From contig JBHLPF010000012.1 in the NCBI GenBank assembly GCA_048939765.1, forward strand, positions 1 through 39,881: a stretch of 39,881 bases of DNA. Direction: 5' to 3'. A model generated the notes under the pieces. The model saw nothing but the letters and a program-made list of their open reading frames with translations, was not told where the DNA came from and did no database searches. Both the position numbers and the translations under genes were made by a program. This document shows positions 7,240-17,682 of this stretch, piece by piece (the first letter of the stretch is position 1; every line of letters begins with the position of its first letter). This stretch comes from Promethearchaeota archaeon (GTDB lineage: Archaea; Asgardarchaeota; Thorarchaeia; Thorarchaeales; Thorarchaeaceae).

Positions 7240-7352
7240 CAAGGCACTGGCGACGGACTTCAAGAAGCTGCATTTTGGCAAATTTAAGACTATTCTGATT
7301 GCAGTCTCTTTATATCTCACAAACCATCTTTTCAATTCTGGAGACTCTATCA

Positions 7353-9692
7353 ATGAACAGCCGGATGCAAGCGCTGCGGGACAAAATGGTGGGCACAGTT
7401 CCCAGCATCTCGATAATTAGGACCAAGCTATTTACTGAGTCTATGTGGCAAACTGAAGGTGAACCTGCAATAATGCGGCAGGCAAAAGCACTTGCCAATG
7501 TATTGCGAAACATGCCGATTGAGATTCTTCCTCACGAGCTTGTAGTTGGCAAAATAGTAGAGGATGTTCCAGGAGCAACGATATATCCTGAAGCCCATGG
7601 AACGAGAGTCTTTCCAGAGCTAGAGGATTTGCGGACACGCGGACCGAAAGCCTACTCGATTTCTGATGAATCCATCAATATGCTGATGGAGGAAATTGGA
7701 CCCTATTGGGCCGAGAGGTCTCTCCTCGCACACGTGGAGAAGTCTACTCCTTCCCATGTCATAGACACCCTTTACTCCGGTGCAGCATTTGTGCTTACTG
7801 AGTTGGCTGGCTACGGCCATGTAAGCATTAACTACCCGCTGCTCTTTTCGAAGGGATTCGACGAGATAGCAAATGAATCTCGGGAGCGGCTGAAACAGGA
7901 ATCAGACGACAAGAGAGACTTCTACAATGCTACTTCTATTGTAGCTGATGCTATCGTGGAATACGCGAACAGATACGCATTACTTGCCCAACAGCTTTCT
8001 GAAGAAGAAGACAACTCTGAGAGAAGATCAGAGCTTGAGAGCATCGCTGAAGCATGTAAGTGGGTTCCTGCAAAGCCTCCGCGTACTTTTCATGAAGCTA
8101 TTCAGTTCATTAGGTTCACCCACTTGGCACTCAGCTTGGAAACCTATGATGGACAAGCCATCTCTCTTGGAAGGATAGATCAATATCTCTATCCCTTCTA
8201 TAGAAAGGATTTGGATTCTGGAGTGCTAGATGATGAACGTGCGCGAGAGCTGGTTGAGAGCCTGTGGATCAAGCTCAACGAGCAGGTGCCACTGTTCGAT
8301 GAATTAGTCGCCCTGTATTTTGAAGGTCTCCTTACTACGAAGGCCGCCACTATTGGTGGGAGGCAACTGAATGGCTCTGATGCAACCAATGAGCTGACCT
8401 ACATCCTCTTGGAAGCTACAAGGCGAGTTGCCCTGCCACTTCCGAATGTACACGTTCGAATTCACAGTGAGACTCCAGATGCCTTGCTATCTGCAGTTGT
8501 TTCAACAATTGAGTCGGGAGTCAACAACATTGCTCTGTTCAATGATGATGTCATCGTTAAGTCAATGGAAAGGAAAGGTGTTTCGAAGGAAGATGCTAGG
8601 AACTACGCAACAATTGGATGTGTAGAACTTGCTCCCTTTGGCAATAGCTTCACCTCATCAGATGCAGCTCTCTTCAACATCGCTCTGTGTCTTGAACTTG
8701 CGTTGAACAATGGTGAAGCTGTTCATCTTGGTCAGCATCTTGGAACTGAAACCGGCGATGCGACCGAGTATGTTTCAATGGATGAGGTCATTGAAGCCTT
8801 TAGGAAACAAGTTTCATTTCTTGTCGCACAGATGGCTGAGGGATCAGATTCCTTTGAAAGAGGGAATATAGACCACAAGCCGACTCCATTGCTCTCGTTG
8901 TGTGTAGATGGATGCTTCGAGAAAGGTGCAGACATCACAACCGGGTCTGCGAAATACAACTTTACTGGGGTTCAGGGTGTAGGCATGGCTACAGTTGCTG
9001 ATTCACTTGCAGCCATTGACCAGTTAGTATTCAGAGAGAAGCGGATTTCTATGGAAGAGCTTGTTGCTGGTCTTCGTAAGGGACTGGAGAAGAATGAGCC
9101 TCTCAGACAGCTACTCCAAAACCGAGGCCCAAAATATGGTAATGATGATGAGCTAGCAGATGGATATGCGCGACTTGTCTCTAGAATTTATAGTGAAGAA
9201 GTTGAGAAGCACTCCAATGTGAGGGGCGGATCGTTCATACCTGGAATGTACTCAGTATCGACGCATGTTCCATTCGGCTATATGACAGGCGCGCTTCCGA
9301 GTGGTAGAGTGGAGGGGACTCCCCTAAGCAATGGAGCGTCACCAAGTGTGGGCTCCACAAGAAAGGGTCTGACTGCTGCCATGACTTCAACTTCGAAAGT
9401 CGACTATACGTTGTATCCTAATGGTATCGCATTCACATTGTCTATCGATCCTGCGATGGCGTCGGGTGAAGGGGCAGAGATTCTTGCCTCTCTTATACGG
9501 TCGTACGTGAAATTGGGAGGGATGCAGATACAATTCAACATGACTGATGTGGATACACTTCTGAGTGCCCAGAAGAATCCAGATGCTCACCGTGACCTCT
9601 TAGTGAGAGTTGCGGGGTATAGTGCCTATTTCACTGACTTGGGCTCAGACCTGCAAGAAGAAATTATCGGAAGATTTCAGAGGTCTAGCTAA
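7353..9692 (+). CDS. pflD: Glycyl radical enzyme, PFL2/PflD-like, substrate unknown
   Basis: C-terminal RVAGYSAYF glycyl-radical loop; single-Cys GCVE loop; GCVELAPFGNSFTSSDAA resembles Archaeoglobus PFL2 as recalled; ATG 7353 with GGAGA upstream and CTTTATAT at 7307-7314. Confidence 0.88.
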   Translation: MNSRMQALRDKMVGTVPSISIIRTKLFTESMWQTEGEPAIMRQAKALANVLRNMPIEILPHELVVGKIVEDVPGATIYPEAHGTRVFPELEDLRTRGPKAYSISDESINMLMEEIGPYWAERSLLAHVEKSTPSHVIDTLYSGAAFVLTELAGYGHVSINYPLLFSKGFDEIANESRERLKQESDDKRDFYNATSIVADAIVEYANRYALLAQQLSEEEDNSERRSELESIAEACKWVPAKPPRTFHEAIQFIRFTHLALSLETYDGQAISLGRIDQYLYPFYRKDLDSGVLDDERARELVESLWIKLNEQVPLFDELVALYFEGLLTTKAATIGGRQLNGSDATNELTYILLEATRRVALPLPNVHVRIHSETPDALLSAVVSTIESGVNNIALFNDDVIVKSMERKGVSKEDARNYATIGCVELAPFGNSFTSSDAALFNIALCLELALNNGEAVHLGQHLGTETGDATEYVSMDEVIEAFRKQVSFLVAQMAEGSDSFERGNIDHKPTPLLSLCVDGCFEKGADITTGSAKYNFTGVQGVGMATVADSLAAIDQLVFREKRISMEELVAGLRKGLEKNEPLRQLLQNRGPKYGNDDELADGYARLVSRIYSEEVEKHSNVRGGSFIPGMYSVSTHVPFGYMTGALPSGRVEGTPLSNGASPSVGSTRKGLTAAMTSTSKVDYTLYPNGIAFTLSIDPAMASGEGAEILASLIRSYVKLGGMQIQFNMTDVDTLLSAQKNPDAHRDLLVRVAGYSAYFTDLGSDLQEEIIGRFQRSS

Positions 9693-10726
9693 AACCGTTT
9701 CTTTCGCTTCGGATATGCACTGAAGGGTGCTCTGGGGGTCTGACTCACCCAATCCTTGGCGTCGTCAATTCGAGAAAGGGAGCGAAGTATGTCAAATGTG
9801 ATCCATCGAGTTGCTTCGGGTCTAGGCTGATACTCCCAGAGACCATAGTGTCCCTGCTGCTCCTGAAACCATTTCACGAGATCTTCCAATCGCTCATCAT
9901 TTTTGCCTGCTCCAATCCTCCATGACAAATCCAGAATTAGTGCAGGATCGAATCGTGCGTGATATGTGAAATGTCCACGGTGTTGTTCAAATCCGACTAG
10001 GCGGGCTACATTCAAGCCTACTGTCTTTCTATCTCTAGTTTCTCTACCAAGGAGAAGGTCTAATGCACGCTTTGCTTCGAGACTTGACCTTCTGGAGGGG
10101 TGATGCGCAAGAGTGGTAAGTGCAAGGGTTGTGTTTGTCCTGCATGCCCAGTCAGAGTGAGGCATCCTTCGATATCCTGCCCTATAGCCGAGGACTTCTC
10201 CCACCTTTCCAGTTGGCCACGCACCATCATCAAGCCGTTGGTCAATGAGCCATTCGTAGGCCAACTCTGCTCTCTTATCTGTTGAATAACCCGCTGTTGC
10301 GATACCTAACAATGGAATGGATGTCTGCAGAGGCACCATAGTATAGACGCCTCCATCAAGGCTGCTTCCATCATATGTCTGAGGAATTGCCCACGACCCA
10401 TCTCTCCTTTGCAGTGAGAATATGTATTCAACACCTCGTTTCATAGCTGGATGGTCCCGAGGAAGTCCAATGTAACCAAGTCTTTGAAGCGCAAATGATG
10501 TCGGCCTGACTCTATCCTTGGTTTCAGGGCCTCCAAGATCAGTGTTCTTCCATGATCCATCACTACTCTGCTTCTTCAGGAGATTCGATACCAGGGGGTC
10601 TTTTCCAATTAGCTCATCGAGTTCCATGACTTCGGTGTCATCATCGGGACGATTGAGGAGTTCTTTGAGCACAAGTCTTCGCAGACTTGGTGACCTGTCA
10701 GCCAACAGAAGTGGAATCCAAGTCAT
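9689..10726 (-). CDS. Prenyltransferase/squalene-cyclase QW-repeat (alpha/alpha barrel) protein
   Basis: Repeats KQSSDGSW, LQRRDGSW, DQRLDDGAW, QQGHYGLW; ATG 10726 overlaps the upstream TGA (ATGA); no DXDD cyclase motif seen. Confidence 0.8.
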   Translation of the reverse strand: MTWIPLLLADRSPSLRRLVLKELLNRPDDDTEVMELDELIGKDPLVSNLLKKQSSDGSWKNTDLGGPETKDRVRPTSFALQRLGYIGLPRDHPAMKRGVEYIFSLQRRDGSWAIPQTYDGSSLDGGVYTMVPLQTSIPLLGIATAGYSTDKRAELAYEWLIDQRLDDGAWPTGKVGEVLGYRAGYRRMPHSDWACRTNTTLALTTLAHHPSRRSSLEAKRALDLLLGRETRDRKTVGLNVARLVGFEQHRGHFTYHARFDPALILDLSWRIGAGKNDERLEDLVKWFQEQQGHYGLWEYQPRPEATRWITFDILRSLSRIDDAKDWVSQTPRAPFSAYPKRKKRF

Positions 10727-13700
10727 GACGCTCCCTCCAAGACCTCTCTCAAGTAAGGGGCAGTAGGTGTGTCCATCCCTGCAACCTCCCTTGGACTCCC
10801 AGTGGCTATCACCCTGCCACCTTTCGGTCCTCCAACTGGACCCAGCTCCAATAGCCAATCACAGGCTGCCAGGACATTCGGATGATGTTCAATAACAATG
10901 ACCGTGTTGCCTTCCGAGACAAGCCGCTGTAATACGCCTACGAGACGGTCGACATCCTCCAAATGCTGCCCAACAGTAGGTTCGTCTACTATGTAGAGGG
11001 TTGAAGATGAGTTCTTCTTGGAGAGTTCCTGTGCTATCTTGAGCCTCTGTATCTCCCCGCCTGAGAGTGTCACACTGGGTTGTCTGAGGACCAAGTAATC
11101 TAGTCCGACCTCCAATGCTGTTTTCAGCCTCCTTGAAACTCTGTCATCATCCTTGAACAGCTTGTAGAGCTGACCGAGTGTCATGGCGTTGAGTTCGGGT
11201 AATGAGATTCCCTTGACTCTAACATCCCATGCCTCTGGAGATCTCCCTGTTCCTTTGCATGTTTCACAGGGCGCAAATACATCAGGTAGGAATCCCATCT
11301 CAGTCCTAATTCGCCCCTGGCCTTCGCACACTGTGCATGGTGTACTGAGGCTCTTGTAATCCAACCCCAGTGCTTCTGCATCTTCACTCTCAGCATATAT
11401 CTGAACTAGCGACTTGAACAGGTCAAGAGCATGACCAGGACTCCGAATGCCCTTCCGACCCTGATCTAACATCACAACTCTCTCTGGACTCCCTGTGATC
11501 GATTCATGTTCTCCTGGTTCAAGTGGCACAAATGATACACTGGTTGTGAATTTCGTTGGCGCAAGGGCTCTTCCTATTGTGTCTATCATCAGAGTACTCT
11601 TGCCTGACCCAGATGTTCCACATATCCCAATAAGCAGGCCTAGGGGAAATTCTACTGTCAGGTTCTTGAGATTGTTTGCTTTTGCTCCCTTTACCTTCAT
11701 CCAGGCGATGGGTTCACGAGTTTCATCAGCAACAGCAGGCACTCTGTCACCTCGGAGCCATCTTGCCGTAATTGTATCTGCCTTCATCAATTCAGGGAGC
11801 GTACCGCTTGCGACTATTCTTCCACCTGACTCACCTGACTTGGGTCCCATGTCGACCACGATGTCTGCAGCTTTTATGACACCAAAGTCATGCTCGACAA
11901 CAATCACCGAGTGTCCTTCATCCCGGAGTTCTTTCAATGCATCAACAAGTGCATCCACCTCCGATGGATGCATTCCTCGCGTTGGCTCGTCGAGTAAGAC
12001 AGTCAGAGATGTGAGACCGCTGCCCAATAATGATGAGAGAACAACCCTTTGGGCCTCGCCTGCAGAGAGCGTGTTGGCCTCTCGATTAAGGTGAAGATAT
12101 CCAAGACCTACCTTCTCCAGAAAGCCGAGTTTCTTGATTATCTTCTCAAGATTACTTGTGGCAATCTCACCCTTCTTCGTTAGCTTTATGGCTCCAAGGA
12201 CCTGTTTCAATTCAGAAATAGGAAGTCCATTCAATTCGTCAATGCTACGGCCCTTTATCTTGATATTGCGGTATTTCTCACGTAGACCGCTCCCTTTACA
12301 CTCTTTACACTGCTCTCTTCTTGTATATGTGCCGCCAACATCCCAGTCACTAACCCATCGATAGAATCCACTCCAACTCCCCTTCGAATTAACCTCTACT
12401 CGCTTTCCTCTACGAGTTCCCAAGTAAGTGATGTCAAGAGGCTTTGGATTGGGGTCTCCATAAAGGAAAACATTCTGCACATGTTCCGGAATCTCATTCC
12501 AAGGTGTTGTCTTAGGGTCGAACCCATATCGCTTCCCGAGAGCATCAAGCGCCCCTCCAGCCCAGCTTGTTGGTGTACAGAAATAGCCCCTCGGGAAGTA
12601 GCCTGGAGAGTACATTGCTCCAGCGCAGATAGGCTTGTCAGGATGGACTATCAGCTTCTCAGGAATTGGCACTTGGCGATGTCCAACGCCACTGCAGGTG
12701 ACGCAAGCCGATGTGTATGTTCGCGAGGAGAAATCTCTAGGCCTCAGCAAAGGAACTTGCGTTTCACAAGCAGGACACTCCAATGTTTCTCCTCGTTTCA
12801 TTAATTTGCCACATTTCTCGCAAGGAACTTTCCCGATTGTAGCAAACAATGCTGCAAGATGATTGGATACCTCAGTCACAATTCCTACGGTTGTCCTAAC
12901 TGCGTACACTGACCACCATCCCGCACCTCGTCGTCGCCGAGATGTGATAGACATAGTGACGCCGAGTCCGCTGACTGATTCAACCGGCGCCTCAGGGCCC
13001 TCCCTTATTCCTTGCCTCTCATAAAGCGACAGGGATTCGTAGTATCTCCGCTCTGCCTCAGCCTGTAGTACATCCCTGACCAACGAGCTCTTTCCTGATC
13101 CCGATGGACCAGTCACGACTGTCAGTTTTCCCTTAGGAATGTCTAGACTGACATCTTTCAGGTTGTTGGCAGTGGCTCTCTTCACTTGGATAAAATCCGA
13201 CACACGACTGTGCTCTTCAGGGATCGCTCTTGGCGATAGCTTTTGTTCATCTCTCAGCGCTTTGGCGGTCAATGACATCTTGTTCTTGAGAAGTCCCTTT
13301 GGTGCTCCTTCAAACAGCAGTTCTCCGCCCTCGGGACCTGCACCAATCCCCAAATCGACAATCCAATCAGCAGAACGGATAATATCCAGATTATGTTCAA
13401 CGACAACAATCGTGGCACCAGCCTCAACGAGAGTGTCGAGAACACTTAGAAGACCATGAAGGTCTGCTGCTGAGAGACCTGTTGAAGGCTCATCGAGAAT
13501 TAGCAGGTCCTCTGAGAGTCCTCGCTTTCCTAGGAACCTAGCTAGTTTCACTCTCTGTGATTCGCCGCCCGAGAGTTGAGGAGATGGTTGCCCAAGCTTC
13601 AGGTACCCAAGTCCTATTGTGACGAGCGCATCAAGAATCTTGTTTGCTGAACGTTTCTTGTTTTCCGGAAGTCGTTCTTCTTGAGCTAGGAGTTGTTGCG

Positions 13701-15615
13701 CCTCCTGAATGGAGAGCTGATAGAAGTCAGCTATTGTCAGAACTTTGTTAGCAAACTCTACCTTGGTTTCTAGGACTTCAGGATTGAAGCGTTTGCCCTC
13801 ACACGATGAGCAGGTGATCCAAATTGAAGGAAGATAGCGCATCTTGACCTCTACCGCACCCATCCCCTTGCAGGCAGGACACATACCTTCGGGTCTGTTG
13901 AATGAGAAATGCGATGCGGATAGCTCTGATTCAGACGCATAGAGGTCTCTTATGATGTCTGACAGTTTCGTATATGTCGCGGGATTTGACCTAGGATTTC
14001 GTCCTATCGGCTTTTGATCTACAAGAACAGGTTTGAGCCTTTCACCAACAATCTCGGTGCATCCAGCAGGCTCTTTTTGTCTTAGCGACGGAACAAGAAC
14101 ATGTTCGACAAGAGTGCTCTTTCCTGAGCCAGACACTCCTGAAATGACGGTCAAACGTTCCAGAGGGATGTGGACTTCAATACCCTTGAGATTATGCTTC
14201 GCTGCGTTCTTTATGGTGAGGAACTCCTTCGGAAGAGTCCGCTCACGTTTGATGGGCACACTCTCATGCAGACTGAAGTACCTCCCCGTTGTGGTTTCTG
14301 CATCCCACAATTCTGCGGGTGTGCCGGTGAATACTATCTCGCCGCCGTCCTCACCCGCTGCTGGACCTATGTCTATCGCTTGGTCTGCCTCAGCGGCCGC
14401 CAGACGGTCATGTTCAACATAAATGACAGGACCAGGAAGTTCCCTAAATGCTGGAAGAACCTTCTTGACATCAGCAGCACTCTGTCCTATGGTTGGTTCA
14501 TCTAAAAGGTGCACCACGTCTTCCAATCTGTTGGTCAGCGAGATGGCCAAGCGAACTCTCTGACTCTCACCTCGAGAAAGACTAGGAGCCGATCGATTTA
14601 GCTGTATGTAGCCCAGTCCCACTCTGAGGAGAGCATCCAGTCGTTTCACAATCTCAAGCTTCAACCTTTTGGCAGTCGATGGTAAAACAGCATTCCTGAA
14701 GACCTTCCTAACCTCATCGACTGTGAGTGCCATCAGTTCGCCGAATCCGTGACCCTCCCATTTGACCATGGCTGCCTCGGAGTCCATTCCAGTGTAATGA
14801 CACACCTCACATCCATCACCGCCACATTCAGCACACTTCATTCGGAAGTGCTTTGGTTCCAATTCCTCAACCCACTTGCCACATTCACTGCACGCACCAG
14901 TCCTGGAGAGTCCAATTTCTCCAGCACTTGACTGAATAACCACTGAATTTGCGCCAAGAGCCGAGGCAATCCCTACACTCTCACGAATCTCTCTTCTTGC
15001 TGCTTTTCCAGTGTATCTCCCTATGATGACCGACACGTCATGCTCCAATGATGGAGTCAATTCTTTCTTCTTCCATGGTTTGCCATCGACAAGCAATGAT
15101 TCTGCACCGAATTCCTTCTCAAGAAGATTCAAGAGAGTGGAGTGTCCGCCTACAACTTTCCTCATTAAGGGTGCTGTGAGAATGAACTCTTCTTTCTTCG
15201 CCAATTCTCCTATTCTCTCTACAATCTCGTCTTCAGTCATCTTGGAGAGTGAGGCACCACATTGGGAACAAGACCTAGTTCCAAACCTAGTGTAAAGCAA
15301 TCTCAGGAATGGATGGAGACCTGAAGCAGACGCTAATGTGGAGAGAGGGTTTCGATTCAGCAGATTCTGCCCAACTGCTACTGTTGGGCCAATGCCAGAT
15401 ATAGAATCAACATTTGCTGGGGCAAGTCGGACCGTGGAGCGACCGGCATTGAACACCTCAAGAAATCTACGGCGAGCCTCGTGGTACATTGTGTCGAAAA
15501 CAAGAGAGGTTTTTCCTGAGCCACTTATGCCAGTGACTACTGTTAAGCCATCGCCTATATCAACACTCACATTTTTGAGGTTGTTCTCGCGGGCTCGCCG
15601 GATTCTAATGTCCAT
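10723..15615 (-). CDS. uvrA: Double-length UvrA-family ABC ATPase (two fused UvrA modules)
   Basis: Four Walker A (GISGSGKT, GVSGSGKS, GPSGSGKS, GTSGSGKS), four signatures (LSRGE, LSGGE, LSAGE, LSGGE), four DEP Walker B, four NLK starts, multiple CxxC zinc modules, PIGRNPRSNPATY motif. Confidence 0.92.
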   Translation of the reverse strand: MDIRIRRARENNLKNVSVDIGDGLTVVTGISGSGKTSLVFDTMYHEARRRFLEVFNAGRSTVRLAPANVDSISGIGPTVAVGQNLLNRNPLSTLASASGLHPFLRLLYTRFGTRSCSQCGASLSKMTEDEIVERIGELAKKEEFILTAPLMRKVVGGHSTLLNLLEKEFGAESLLVDGKPWKKKELTPSLEHDVSVIIGRYTGKAARREIRESVGIASALGANSVVIQSSAGEIGLSRTGACSECGKWVEELEPKHFRMKCAECGGDGCEVCHYTGMDSEAAMVKWEGHGFGELMALTVDEVRKVFRNAVLPSTAKRLKLEIVKRLDALLRVGLGYIQLNRSAPSLSRGESQRVRLAISLTNRLEDVVHLLDEPTIGQSAADVKKVLPAFRELPGPVIYVEHDRLAAAEADQAIDIGPAAGEDGGEIVFTGTPAELWDAETTTGRYFSLHESVPIKRERTLPKEFLTIKNAAKHNLKGIEVHIPLERLTVISGVSGSGKSTLVEHVLVPSLRQKEPAGCTEIVGERLKPVLVDQKPIGRNPRSNPATYTKLSDIIRDLYASESELSASHFSFNRPEGMCPACKGMGAVEVKMRYLPSIWITCSSCEGKRFNPEVLETKVEFANKVLTIADFYQLSIQEAQQLLAQEERLPENKKRSANKILDALVTIGLGYLKLGQPSPQLSGGESQRVKLARFLGKRGLSEDLLILDEPSTGLSAADLHGLLSVLDTLVEAGATIVVVEHNLDIIRSADWIVDLGIGAGPEGGELLFEGAPKGLLKNKMSLTAKALRDEQKLSPRAIPEEHSRVSDFIQVKRATANNLKDVSLDIPKGKLTVVTGPSGSGKSSLVRDVLQAEAERRYYESLSLYERQGIREGPEAPVESVSGLGVTMSITSRRRRGAGWWSVYAVRTTVGIVTEVSNHLAALFATIGKVPCEKCGKLMKRGETLECPACETQVPLLRPRDFSSRTYTSACVTCSGVGHRQVPIPEKLIVHPDKPICAGAMYSPGYFPRGYFCTPTSWAGGALDALGKRYGFDPKTTPWNEIPEHVQNVFLYGDPNPKPLDITYLGTRRGKRVEVNSKGSWSGFYRWVSDWDVGGTYTRREQCKECKGSGLREKYRNIKIKGRSIDELNGLPISELKQVLGAIKLTKKGEIATSNLEKIIKKLGFLEKVGLGYLHLNREANTLSAGEAQRVVLSSLLGSGLTSLTVLLDEPTRGMHPSEVDALVDALKELRDEGHSVIVVEHDFGVIKAADIVVDMGPKSGESGGRIVASGTLPELMKADTITARWLRGDRVPAVADETREPIAWMKVKGAKANNLKNLTVEFPLGLLIGICGTSGSGKSTLMIDTIGRALAPTKFTTSVSFVPLEPGEHESITGSPERVVMLDQGRKGIRSPGHALDLFKSLVQIYAESEDAEALGLDYKSLSTPCTVCEGQGRIRTEMGFLPDVFAPCETCKGTGRSPEAWDVRVKGISLPELNAMTLGQLYKLFKDDDRVSRRLKTALEVGLDYLVLRQPSVTLSGGEIQRLKIAQELSKKNSSSTLYIVDEPTVGQHLEDVDRLVGVLQRLVSEGNTVIVIEHHPNVLAACDWLLELGPVGGPKGGRVIATGSPREVAGMDTPTAPYLREVLEGAS

Positions 15616-15735: not shown

Positions 15736-16950
15736 TTACACGCTCTCTGCGAGTGCCGTCATTGTAATGGTTTCTTTTTCGCTGATTCGTTTGAGGAGCT
15801 CACAAACTGGCTTGATGAACTCAGAGTAGTCCGAAACCTCGTTCTTTGCAGCTTCATCCATAAGAATTGGCACCTTCTCAGCCTTCCTTCTAACATCGTC
15901 CAACATCTTCAACCCCTTCTTCTCAAGTAGCTCGTTGTTTGACCACTGGATCTCCCTCAGTTCAGCTAAGGCAGGGCATTCATCAGGCAGGAGGCCATTT
16001 GCCACATCTCTCCACATTTCTACTATGTCCCTAAACTCCTGTGCTCCCCTCAACATTGGATCGCTATTCATGAGTGTGCCGGCCTCCTGCAAGAAATCAG
16101 AGTATATCTGACGGAATATGGCCCCGCCTGACCCTCCTGTTTCTATGTATACGAAGTGCATCACGAGCGCATGTACAAGATTCCTGGGATTGGGAAACAT
16201 CTTCGGATATTTGGTGAGTTCCTTGCTCCATCTCATTATTCCCTTCACTCCGACATTGGAGATTGGAGGATTGAGAAGAGCATCTGCATTCTCGCGAATT
16301 GCATCAGGTATTATGTTCTCAAGAGGCGCGAGAGTTTCTGGAAAGGAGAAGCGCACCATTTGGTTCATGGCTGGAAAAGGAGGATATTCAGACGCTCGTG
16401 CTTTTTGAAGTTGGGTCAGAGCCATCTCAGCTGTTCCATGAAACCTGTCTGAGATGTAGGCCTTATTATTAGGCTCATCGATTCCATAGATGAGGAAATT
16501 GTGTTCACCGAAATGGTCGTCTTCACCAGTCAATAGATGGTCGAGATAAGCCATGTCGACACAGACCAGGCCCGGTTGGTTTTGCTTGAGAGTGTCTTTG
16601 AGAAACATGTGCGCCTTCTTTATGCTCTTGGTTAAGATTGACTCAAAGTCCCCTCCCAATCGCGTCGCAGCCTTTCCAAGAATGCCTGGAAACTTCCTGC
16701 AGTCCGATCTGTTCATTCCTCCAACAATGGGATATGGCATCATCTTCATGAACCAATAGATGAATCCCATTCCTGCCGAAATTCCAACAAGCATCGGCTC
16801 ACTGATCTCGTGTCCGAGGTGATTCATCAATCGAACCATGGAACTCGTCTGGCAATTCTTGCCATTCCCAAAATGTTTGAAATCGAGGACTATTCGTTCA
16901 TCGCCAATGCCAGCTGGCTTGAACTCCTTCTTCCTACTCATACTCTTCAC
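15736..16950 (-). CDS. BtrH N-terminal-domain protein (papain/C39-like fold, putative acyltransferase or peptidase)
   Basis: NCQT...ISEPMLVGISAGMGFIY, VDMAYL, HFGEH, YISD giving a plausible Cys-His-Asp triad; ETGGSGGAIFRQIYSDFL C-terminal motif; GTG overlaps padR stop (GTGA). Confidence 0.8.
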   Translation of the reverse strand: MKSMSRKKEFKPAGIGDERIVLDFKHFGNGKNCQTSSMVRLMNHLGHEISEPMLVGISAGMGFIYWFMKMMPYPIVGGMNRSDCRKFPGILGKAATRLGGDFESILTKSIKKAHMFLKDTLKQNQPGLVCVDMAYLDHLLTGEDDHFGEHNFLIYGIDEPNNKAYISDRFHGTAEMALTQLQKARASEYPPFPAMNQMVRFSFPETLAPLENIIPDAIRENADALLNPPISNVGVKGIMRWSKELTKYPKMFPNPRNLVHALVMHFVYIETGGSGGAIFRQIYSDFLQEAGTLMNSDPMLRGAQEFRDIVEMWRDVANGLLPDECPALAELREIQWSNNELLEKKGLKMLDDVRRKAEKVPILMDEAAKNEVSDYSEFIKPVCELLKRISEKETITMTALAESV

Positions 16951-17624
16951 CTGCCACTCTCCCAGAATAGAAATCCTGCCTCATCCTTCTCGATCTCTAG
17001 CACCAACTCTTCCAGCCATTTCTTTTCACATTTCAGTCTAACATGGGGTCTCTCGAACAATGCTAGAACCACTCCTAACTGAGCATCTGCTGGTATATCA
17101 GACGCTTTCATTCCCCCTACAATACGATTCGGTTCAGATTTGCGTATTCTATCGATATTCTTAATGGCATTAGCATGGCTTCCAAGAAAGTCGATTTGCC
17201 CCTCGAGATTTGCCAGTCGTCTCTTGAGTGAATCCACAGCTTCGCCCTTTGTTAACTGGAAGATGGCAGACATCCCTAGGTCGAAGAGACTGTTTGCCTT
17301 TGGTGGATCAACCAAGCACTGCACAATCTGATTTCGAAGATGTTTGGACCCCTTTCTAGTGATGGCGTATGTCTTCTTGGAAGGCTTGATTTTTTCGTCA
17401 GATTTCTGGCCTTTGATTAGACCCTTCCCTTCAAGCTCCTTCAAGGCTTTATAGACTGAAGAGAACTTGATGTCTACCCAGTTGCGATATCCACGCTGCT
17501 CGAGAATTTGGTTTATCTCATATCCGTATTTCGCGCCGGCTCCAATGAGTGAAAGGACTGCGAGATAGGTAGAGGGTAGAAGGACTGCATCCTTCTGCTT
17601 TGACTTAGATTCCATCTGTGCCAT
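16947..17624 (-). CDS. PadR family transcriptional regulator with long C-terminal domain
   Basis: LSLIG..KYGYEI, SSVYKALKELEGKGLI, KKTYAITRKG PadR winged-helix motifs. Confidence 0.9.
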   Translation of the reverse strand: MAQMESKSKQKDAVLLPSTYLAVLSLIGAGAKYGYEINQILEQRGYRNWVDIKFSSVYKALKELEGKGLIKGQKSDEKIKPSKKTYAITRKGSKHLRNQIVQCLVDPPKANSLFDLGMSAIFQLTKGEAVDSLKRRLANLEGQIDFLGSHANAIKNIDRIRKSEPNRIVGGMKASDIPADAQLGVVLALFERPHVRLKCEKKWLEELVLEIEKDEAGFLFWESGR

Positions 17625-17640
17625 CGAATCATCTCGTAGA

Positions 17641-17682
17641 TTATTATACTAGTATAATAACAAATATTCTACTGGTAGAATA
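17641..17682. promoter_or_regulatory. Tandem palindromic operator sites upstream of padR
   Basis: Perfect 20-bp TTATTATACTAGTATAATAA (17641-17660) and related TATTCTACTGGTAGAATA (17665-17682); minus-strand CTTATATT at 17685-17692. Confidence 0.75.

Follow-up and report, generated by a model that had tools for sequence, protein, structure and literature searches.

We analyzed a 39,881-nucleotide stretch of DNA (hereafter the window) from a Promethearchaeota archaeon of the Thorarchaeaceae (assembly GCA_048939765.1, contig JBHLPF010000012.1), whose minus strand carries a gene for a double-length paralog of the excision-repair protein UvrA, followed directly by a gene for a second protein, the partner, with a predicted alpha/alpha-toroid fold (Table 1). 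In the double UvrA, there are four Walker A motifs (at amino acids (aa) 29, 493, 836, and 1333), four signature motifs, and twelve CxxC motifs, and the chain divides into two UvrA units joined by a linker. Among the accessory domains of canonical UvrA, the chain has one UvrB-binding-type domain and one insertion domain, and these are found on opposite halves.

Table 1. Positions in the window of the double uvrA, its units and domains, and the partner gene (ABC, ATP-binding cassette; NBD, nucleotide-binding domain; ORF, open reading frame; pLDDT, predicted local distance difference test score)
Feature	Positions	Strand	Basis
Double-length UvrA paralog, 1630 aa, four ABC ATPase domains	10723..15615	(-)	Uninterrupted ORF, motifs, homologs
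Unit 1, aa 1-790: NBD-I, UvrB-binding domain, and NBD-II, without insertion domain	13246..15615	(-)	TIGR00630 profile, alignment
Zinc module 1 of unit 1, around the sole UvrB-binding-type domain, aa 116-245	14881..15270	(-)	Pfam, CxxC positions, alignment
Collapsed zinc module 2 of unit 1, CAECGGDGCEVC, aa 261-272, site of insertion-domain loss	14800..14835	(-)	CxxC positions, alignment
C-terminal zinc finger of unit 1, aa 579-605	13801..13881	(-)	CxxC positions, alignment
Inter-unit linker, about aa 791-807, near-fixed length	13195..13245	(-)	Homolog spacing, model pLDDT
Unit 2, aa 808-1630: NBD-I, insertion domain, and NBD-II, without UvrB-binding domain	10726..13194	(-)	TIGR00630 profile, alignment
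Degenerate Q-loop of unit 2 NBD-I (no Gln), then Arg-rich, probably disordered loop with RRRRGAGWW	12886..12957	(-)	Alignment, pLDDT
Collapsed zinc module 1 of unit 2, CEKC-11 aa-CPAC, aa 932-950, site of UvrB-binding-domain loss	12766..12822	(-)	CxxC positions, alignment
Zinc module 2 of unit 2, around the sole insertion domain, aa 971-1106	12298..12705	(-)	Pfam, alignment to C. thermocellum and M. tuberculosis UvrA
C-terminal zinc finger of unit 2, aa 1427-1453	11257..11337	(-)	CxxC positions, alignment
Partner, 345-aa alpha/alpha-toroid protein, QW-type repeats	9689..10726	(-)	ORF, predicted model, Foldseek, loci

With Pfam, the UvrB-binding domain (UvrA_inter) is recognized solely at aa 127-228 and the insertion domain (UvrA_DNA-bind) solely at aa 986-1058. 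Unit 1 matches positions 2-285 and 406-922 of the TIGR00630 profile, with 286-405 skipped, and unit 2 matches 2-127 and 251-924, with 128-250 skipped. The same reciprocal gaps appear in an alignment with the two canonical UvrAs encoded by the host genome itself. Here, we noticed that the cysteine motifs flanking the domain in zinc module 1 of unit 1 (CSQC at aa 116, 15259-15270, and CSEC at aa 242, 14881-14892) have 122 aa between them, and that those in zinc module 2 of unit 2 (CVTC at aa 971 and CKEC at aa 1103) have 128 aa between them, while in the collapsed modules the cysteine pairs stand only 4 aa (unit 1, CAECGGDGCEVC) and 11 aa (unit 2) apart. The original prediction, which had put the two intervals at about 120 and 130 aa, placed the CxxC motifs and the collapsed sites of both units exactly, and its proposal that the two domains are reciprocally deleted is borne out by the alignment with the host copies. 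Its term 'hard-wired asymmetry' is fair for the sequence, as there is exactly one of each domain, on opposite halves, and this layout is fixed throughout the family described below. As for the fold, the top Foldseek matches of unit 1 were the UvrA chains 3uwx_A, 3zqj_A, and 2r6f_A. The scores with TIGR00630 (1340 versus a cutoff of 729.8) and NF001503 (1304 versus 1147) both add up the two units, and single pieces of the double UvrA score under these cutoffs in a genome search.

Homologs of the double UvrA were gathered by a word-indexed search, which gave a full-length set of 1615-1667 aa with 56-90% identity. More than 110 full-length homologs were found, all with the twelve CxxC motifs at equal spacings, and their sources, as named, are Thorarchaeota, Promethearchaeota, Bathyarchaeota, Chloroflexi/Anaerolineae, and Desulfatiglandales. 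Two of them are on closed or near-closed chromosomes, in contigs of 3.16 Mb (CP070761) and 1.68 Mb (CP070683), and the fusion by misassembly that the original prediction had kept in mind is thus excluded. More broadly, given the intact frame, the number of homologs, the invariant motifs, and the near-closed chromosomes, it is scarcely conceivable that the gene is an artifact of assembly or gene calling, or a decaying uvrA-uvrA pseudogene.

Across 32 diverse members, none of the four ATPase domains shows any variation in the Walker A Lys, the Walker B Asp-Glu, the signature Ser-Gly-Glu, or the H-loop His, and each unit carries a pair of catalytically equipped ABC ATPase domains. Three of the four domains also have an invariant Q-loop Gln, while NBD-I of unit 2 lacks it in all 32 members, which extends to the family what had been noted for the window protein. 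The RRRRGAGWW insert that was pointed out at the same place is indeed present, as part of an Arg-rich loop that replaces the Q-loop region and is predicted to be disordered (pLDDT of about 32 in the model), but it amounts only to a lineage-specific lengthening by 7 aa, confined to a Thorarchaeota-like subgroup, with a shorter Arg-rich loop or a different insert in the other subgroups. The reciprocal layout, in turn, is fixed in a clade of Asgard and Bathyarchaeota archaea, Chloroflexota, and other bacteria, and the patchy spread over Asgard archaea, Bathyarchaeota, and several bacterial phyla marks the double UvrA as a mobile accessory repair function.

Double-length UvrAs as such are already known, and the one mention of a fused UvrA that our literature search gave is for Planctomycetes (PMC8567305). 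Like the protein here, this planctomycete type and NF001885 (PRK00635) have two UvrA units arranged head-to-tail. In contrast, both units of the planctomycete type are complete. Measured with the Chlamydia-type double UvrA model NF001885 (PRK00635), our protein scores 868.4 bits, under the cutoff of 3054. For a wider comparison, we used aa 431-1630 of the double UvrA as the query in an exhaustive HMMER search over 1.84 billion cluster representatives, and the top 150 matches were nearly all double-length (1570-2343 aa). Layouts were read with hidden Markov models of the two accessory domains built from these matches, where W is a Walker A, B a UvrB-binding domain, and I an insertion domain, in a sample of 134 double-length representatives that is ranked by similarity to the query and is not a census. 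At least six domain layouts are found in this sample. The most frequent, with 41 representatives, has a second unit without the insertion domain (W-B-I-W / W-B-W), followed by that with both units complete (W-B-I-W / W-B-I-W, 31 representatives) and that with both units lacking the UvrB-binding domain (W-I-W / W-I-W, 23 representatives and another 10 with a variant Walker A). The reciprocal layout of our protein (W-B-W / W-I-W) has 10 representatives, while a second unit without the UvrB-binding domain (W-B-I-W / W-I-W) and a first unit without the insertion domain (W-B-W / W-B-I-W) account for 4 and 3. With 43-53% identity, the ten reciprocal representatives (of 50%-identity clusters) rank nearest to the query. 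Asymmetry is thus common among fused UvrAs, but, within this similarity-ranked sample, one domain of each kind on opposite halves marks this clade alone. Since other double-length UvrAs have other layouts, the pattern is not the standard one for them, which the original prediction had named as an outcome that would refute it.

We found no publication on the reciprocal layout or on the toroid partner, with the older classifications of UvrA homologs being outside the reach of this search, and the source annotations are only generic. Goosen and Moolenaar in 2008 and Marszalkowska in 2013 reportedly classified UvrA homologs with a 'duplicated' class among them, which may cover the reciprocal layout.

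The start codon of the partner gene, which, like the canonical cluster described below, is absent from the original prediction, overlaps the stop codon of the double uvrA by 4 bp (ATGA). In each of the 13 loci checked, archaeal and bacterial (four diverse public loci, five from further Asgard genomes, three of distant family members, and the window itself), the double uvrA is followed by a gene with this same 4-bp overlap, and the product of this gene has a length of 325-347 aa across loci. At one of the distant loci, which ends at a contig edge, the gene is a 79-aa unaligned fragment and its toroid identity is presumed, and another distant locus has a bacterial sigma-70 neighbor. The double uvrA and the toroid gene are translationally coupled. 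The two features that delimit the unnamed clade, namely the reciprocal layout and a toroid gene of about 345 aa with a 4-bp overlap, are both found in the window. About 1800 relatives of the partner were obtained at E < 1e-5, and with 55-92% identity among the 120 closest relatives listed, it is as conserved as the ATPase.

The predicted model of the partner, a confident one (pLDDT 82.7, predicted template modeling score (pTM) 0.85), is an alpha/alpha toroid, and its Foldseek matches, which are loose (template modeling (TM) score of 0.31-0.49), are terpene cyclases and complement thioester domains (TED). No specific function for the partner came from NCBIfam, Foldseek, or the ESM Atlas, solely the alpha/alpha-toroid (terpene cyclase, TED) fold. 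A natural fusion of the partner and UvrA was considered and rejected, as just two gene calls (P0243 and P0244) are of this kind, and both start inside UvrA, lack its last 24-41 residues, and look frameshifted. In the window, the partner frame is open for 44 codons 5' of its ATG, within the end of uvrA (10727-10858, minus strand), and so one indel close to the 3' end of uvrA would be enough for a fused ORF, which probably explains the two calls in public data. On its other side, the partner gene converges with a gene on the plus strand (7299-9692) for a 797-aa pyruvate formate-lyase-like glycyl radical enzyme, and the 3' ends of the two share four bases (9689-9692).

A mechanistic parallel for this division of docking and insertion domain between the halves comes from Mycobacterium tuberculosis UvrA. 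In cryogenic electron microscopy work of 2025 on this protein bound to damaged DNA, one insertion domain (the recognition-ID) grips the flipped-out lesion and the other (the support-ID) does not, and the first UvrB joins the protomer whose support-ID releases the DNA (PMC11985968). Moreover, within one protomer, UvrB on the docking domain and the insertion domain on DNA are sterically exclusive, and UvrB contacts the docking domain of one protomer together with signature domain II of the other (PMC11985968). On balance, we lean towards reading the double UvrA as a single-chain tandem in which the two units pack as an internal, UvrA2-like asymmetric sensor with one clamp and one recruited partner. 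Units 1 and 2 would then pack like the two protomers of UvrA2, giving a sensor with built-in asymmetry, in which unit 2 provides the single lesion-clamping 'recognition' insertion domain and unit 1 the single docking platform, with no insertion domain of its own to clash sterically. This would amount to a permanent copy of the UvrA2UvrB1 intermediate, where the first UvrB is on the protomer with the insertion domain that is released from DNA, and only one partner, be it the UvrB of the host or the co-translated toroid, would be recruited by the docking domain.

Like the arrangement proposed here, the M. tuberculosis UvrA2UvrB1-DNA complex (PDB ID: 9GA3; PMC11985968) has one protomer with a lesion-holding insertion domain and no UvrB, while the other docks UvrB and has its insertion domain disengaged. 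In M. tuberculosis, however, a symmetric homodimer becomes asymmetric only transiently, whereas here the asymmetry is encoded in the sequence. In common with class I UvrAs (E. coli, Geobacillus stearothermophilus 2R6F/3UWX, and M. tuberculosis 3ZQJ), each unit has a core of two ABC ATPase domains and three four-Cys zinc sites. In contrast, both accessory domains are present in every class I protomer, while each occurs once in the 1630-aa chain. The double UvrA further differs from class I in having one Q-loop without Gln, in the reduced basic residues of signature domain II (by a provisional mapping, see below), and in a gene that is coupled to that of a toroid and located away from uvrB and uvrC.

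How the two units arose was addressed with single-unit trees in which the accessory domains were masked (FastTree and IQ-TREE). In both trees, the sequences of the family split by unit into two clades, one of unit 1 and one of unit 2, each with full support. These clades are sisters in FastTree (support 88), while a quick IQ-TREE search did not recover this grouping; a tree constrained to it gained 20 log-likelihood units, and the approximately unbiased (AU) test did not reject it (p = 0.71). The raw identities speak against the sister relationship, as units 1 and 2 are 33% identical to each other and 35-39% identical to canonical UvrA. We favor a single internal duplication in the ancestor of the family, which would have been followed by reciprocal domain loss, with long-branch attraction as a possible cause of the grouping.

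That each unit is nearer to canonical UvrA than to the other unit would also suit an arrangement without any internal dimer, where two chains pair to bring four units together or where the units act as independent, tethered half-sensors. We consider this unlikely, since a chain can most easily afford to lose one copy of each accessory domain, from opposite units, if the two units act as one pair, and since UvrA requires dimerization for DNA binding (PMC11985968). The linker speaks against it as well: the spacing between the second and third Walker A motifs is 343-344 aa in 107 of the 115 homologs, and the modeled linker has moderate confidence (pLDDT 74-78). Together, this near-fixed spacing and the linker confidence, along with a pTM of 0.68 for a model of aa 1-1200, lend indirect support to a fixed arrangement of the units.

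The internal, asymmetric sensor that we prefer has to be weighed against several observations that tell against it. Structurally, the pTM of 0.68 is ambiguous, since it was obtained for a truncated aa 1-1200 construct and says little about the geometry of an internal dimer. The UvrB-binding domain of unit 1 is divergent and weakly recognizable (34.9 bits with UvrA_inter versus a cutoff of 23.3), and several charged positions that are common in other UvrAs are changed in it, although this domain varies too much among other UvrAs to judge the UvrB-contact residues firmly. As regards DNA, four basic residues in signature domain II of M. tuberculosis UvrA (R725, K735, R737, and R743) are reported to be needed for binding (PMC3167621). 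The most degenerate stretch of the double UvrA is this same domain in unit 2, around its C-terminal zinc finger. We placed the M. tuberculosis residues on the host alignment through a motif that we take to be the M. tuberculosis one, rather than through an alignment with 3zqj, and the mapping is provisional. On this assumption, unit 1 has R556 (invariant) and, for R743, H569 (also invariant), with the Lys/Arg pair deleted, and unit 2 presumably has none of the four. With the basic residues reduced in this provisional mapping, canonical DNA binding may be altered. We also looked for an equivalent of M. tuberculosis Tyr323 in the insertion domain of unit 2, and the position is aromatic in many members, not in all. 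Two more opposing points are genomic, in that the double uvrA is on another contig than the canonical cluster, adjacent to neither uvrB nor uvrC, and the PadR, BtrH-like, AlkZ-like, and GyrI-like neighbors at some loci suggest genotoxin resistance.

The divergent docking domain, the reduced basic residues, and the degenerate region of unit 2, which corresponds to the trans UvrB contact in canonical complexes (PMC11985968), together leave real room for a second reading, in which the toroid docks in the place of UvrB. In it, the two proteins would form a UvrB-independent, class II-like DNA-protection pair, with the ATPase scanning DNA and evicting or exposing genotoxins or adducts, and the toroid binding the released ligand or lesion. 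This reading is favored by a toroid conserved like the ATPase and coupled to it in translation, by the locus apart from uvrBC, and by the resistance-type neighbors at some loci, and there is a precedent in Ecm16, which functions without UvrB or UvrC (PMC9328131). Class II UvrAs (DrrC, Ecm16 7SH1, and Deinococcus UvrA2 2VF7) are likewise extra paralogs outside uvrBC, and, as in our unit 2, they are without a UvrB-binding domain. Yet they are single-length homodimers that have lost this domain entirely, whereas one is kept in unit 1 of every member of the double UvrA family; they also lack the first zinc module, which in the double UvrA is kept in unit 1 and collapsed in unit 2. Moreover, the resistance-type neighbors are not conserved between loci, the toroid has no specific functional match, and we found no genome that has the pair and clearly lacks uvrB. 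For these reasons, we regard the protection pair as possible and distinctly less probable than the asymmetric sensor. A related and similarly doubtful proposal is that the two genes form an undescribed surveillance module, with the toroid instead of UvrB on the docking domain, which would sense or neutralize a class of lesions or DNA-bound toxins without UvrBC and might owe its spread across archaea and bacteria to gene transfer.

The presence of uvrB was examined through the partner, which is found in 27 of the 151 sampled genomes of the phylum. Its distribution is patchy: 4 of 26 genomes in the family of the window organism have it, as do 16 of 19 from another family, and it is missing from the congeneric sister species. 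A uvrB was found in 25 of the 27 partner-bearing Asgard genomes, as compared with 114 of the 151 overall, which would be indirect evidence that the double UvrA may load UvrB onto damaged DNA. The two without a uvrB match both have uvrC, and one of them has a uvrA broken at contig ends, while the other genome is 74% complete; among the 27, there was no clear case of the pair without uvrB. In the genome of the window organism, a canonical cluster of uvrB, two full-length uvrA genes, and uvrC is found on one strand of contig C88 (50392-60500, with uvrB at 58548-60500), and the double gene is therefore an additional paralog. The tandem canonical uvrA genes, located between uvrB and uvrC, encode class I proteins of 962 and 952 aa with 49% identity. 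As a side observation, two differing canonical UvrAs side by side could form heterodimers.

Long-standing questions in excision repair are whether the sensor is UvrA2UvrB2 or UvrA2UvrB1, and how a symmetric dimer loads a single UvrB on the damaged strand. With one docking and one lesion-clamping domain on opposite halves, the double UvrA would be a ready-made asymmetric version of the damage sensor, and its main interest for excision-repair specialists is as a natural form without symmetry. If it binds UvrB, then one UvrB and one insertion domain suffice, and structural biologists would have a particle without symmetry averaging. Alternatively, if the toroid is bound, a new UvrA-based module would be defined.

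Around the pair, neighbors of a DNA-repair or genotoxin type recur among the loci, and none is conserved. On a Thorarchaeota chromosome (L018; 1-6000 and 16794-16899), the pair is beside genes for an Fpg/Nei-like protein, a DUF3795 protein, and an ATP-dependent DNA ligase, and an XPB-type helicase is also encoded in the vicinity. At L017 (1-6000 and 12000-15000), AlkZ-like, GyrI-like, and BtrH-like genes are near the pair. Anti-phage defense was another candidate, which we rejected. The mad3/mad8 (MADS) models of PADLOC strongly match any UvrA, with 385 bits for the double and 288 bits for a canonical one, and so a lone mad3 match is no sign of a defense system; the partner has no PADLOC match.

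In the window, the gene 120 nucleotides (nt) upstream of the double uvrA, on the same strand, encodes a BtrH_N/DUF4872 protein (15736-16950, minus strand) with a DarH-like acyltransferase or peptidase fold. A BtrH-like gene is likewise near the pair at L017, but it is missing from five of the six other loci with flanking genes (L015, L016, L018, L020, and L021), and L019, a 5.5-kb contig, shows no neighbors. The BtrH_N/DUF4872 gene has a 4-bp overlap with a gene for a PadR-family regulator (16947-17624, minus strand). Located 17 nt upstream of the padR start is a perfect 20-bp palindrome, TTATTATACTAGTATAATAA (17641-17660), which is a putative operator.

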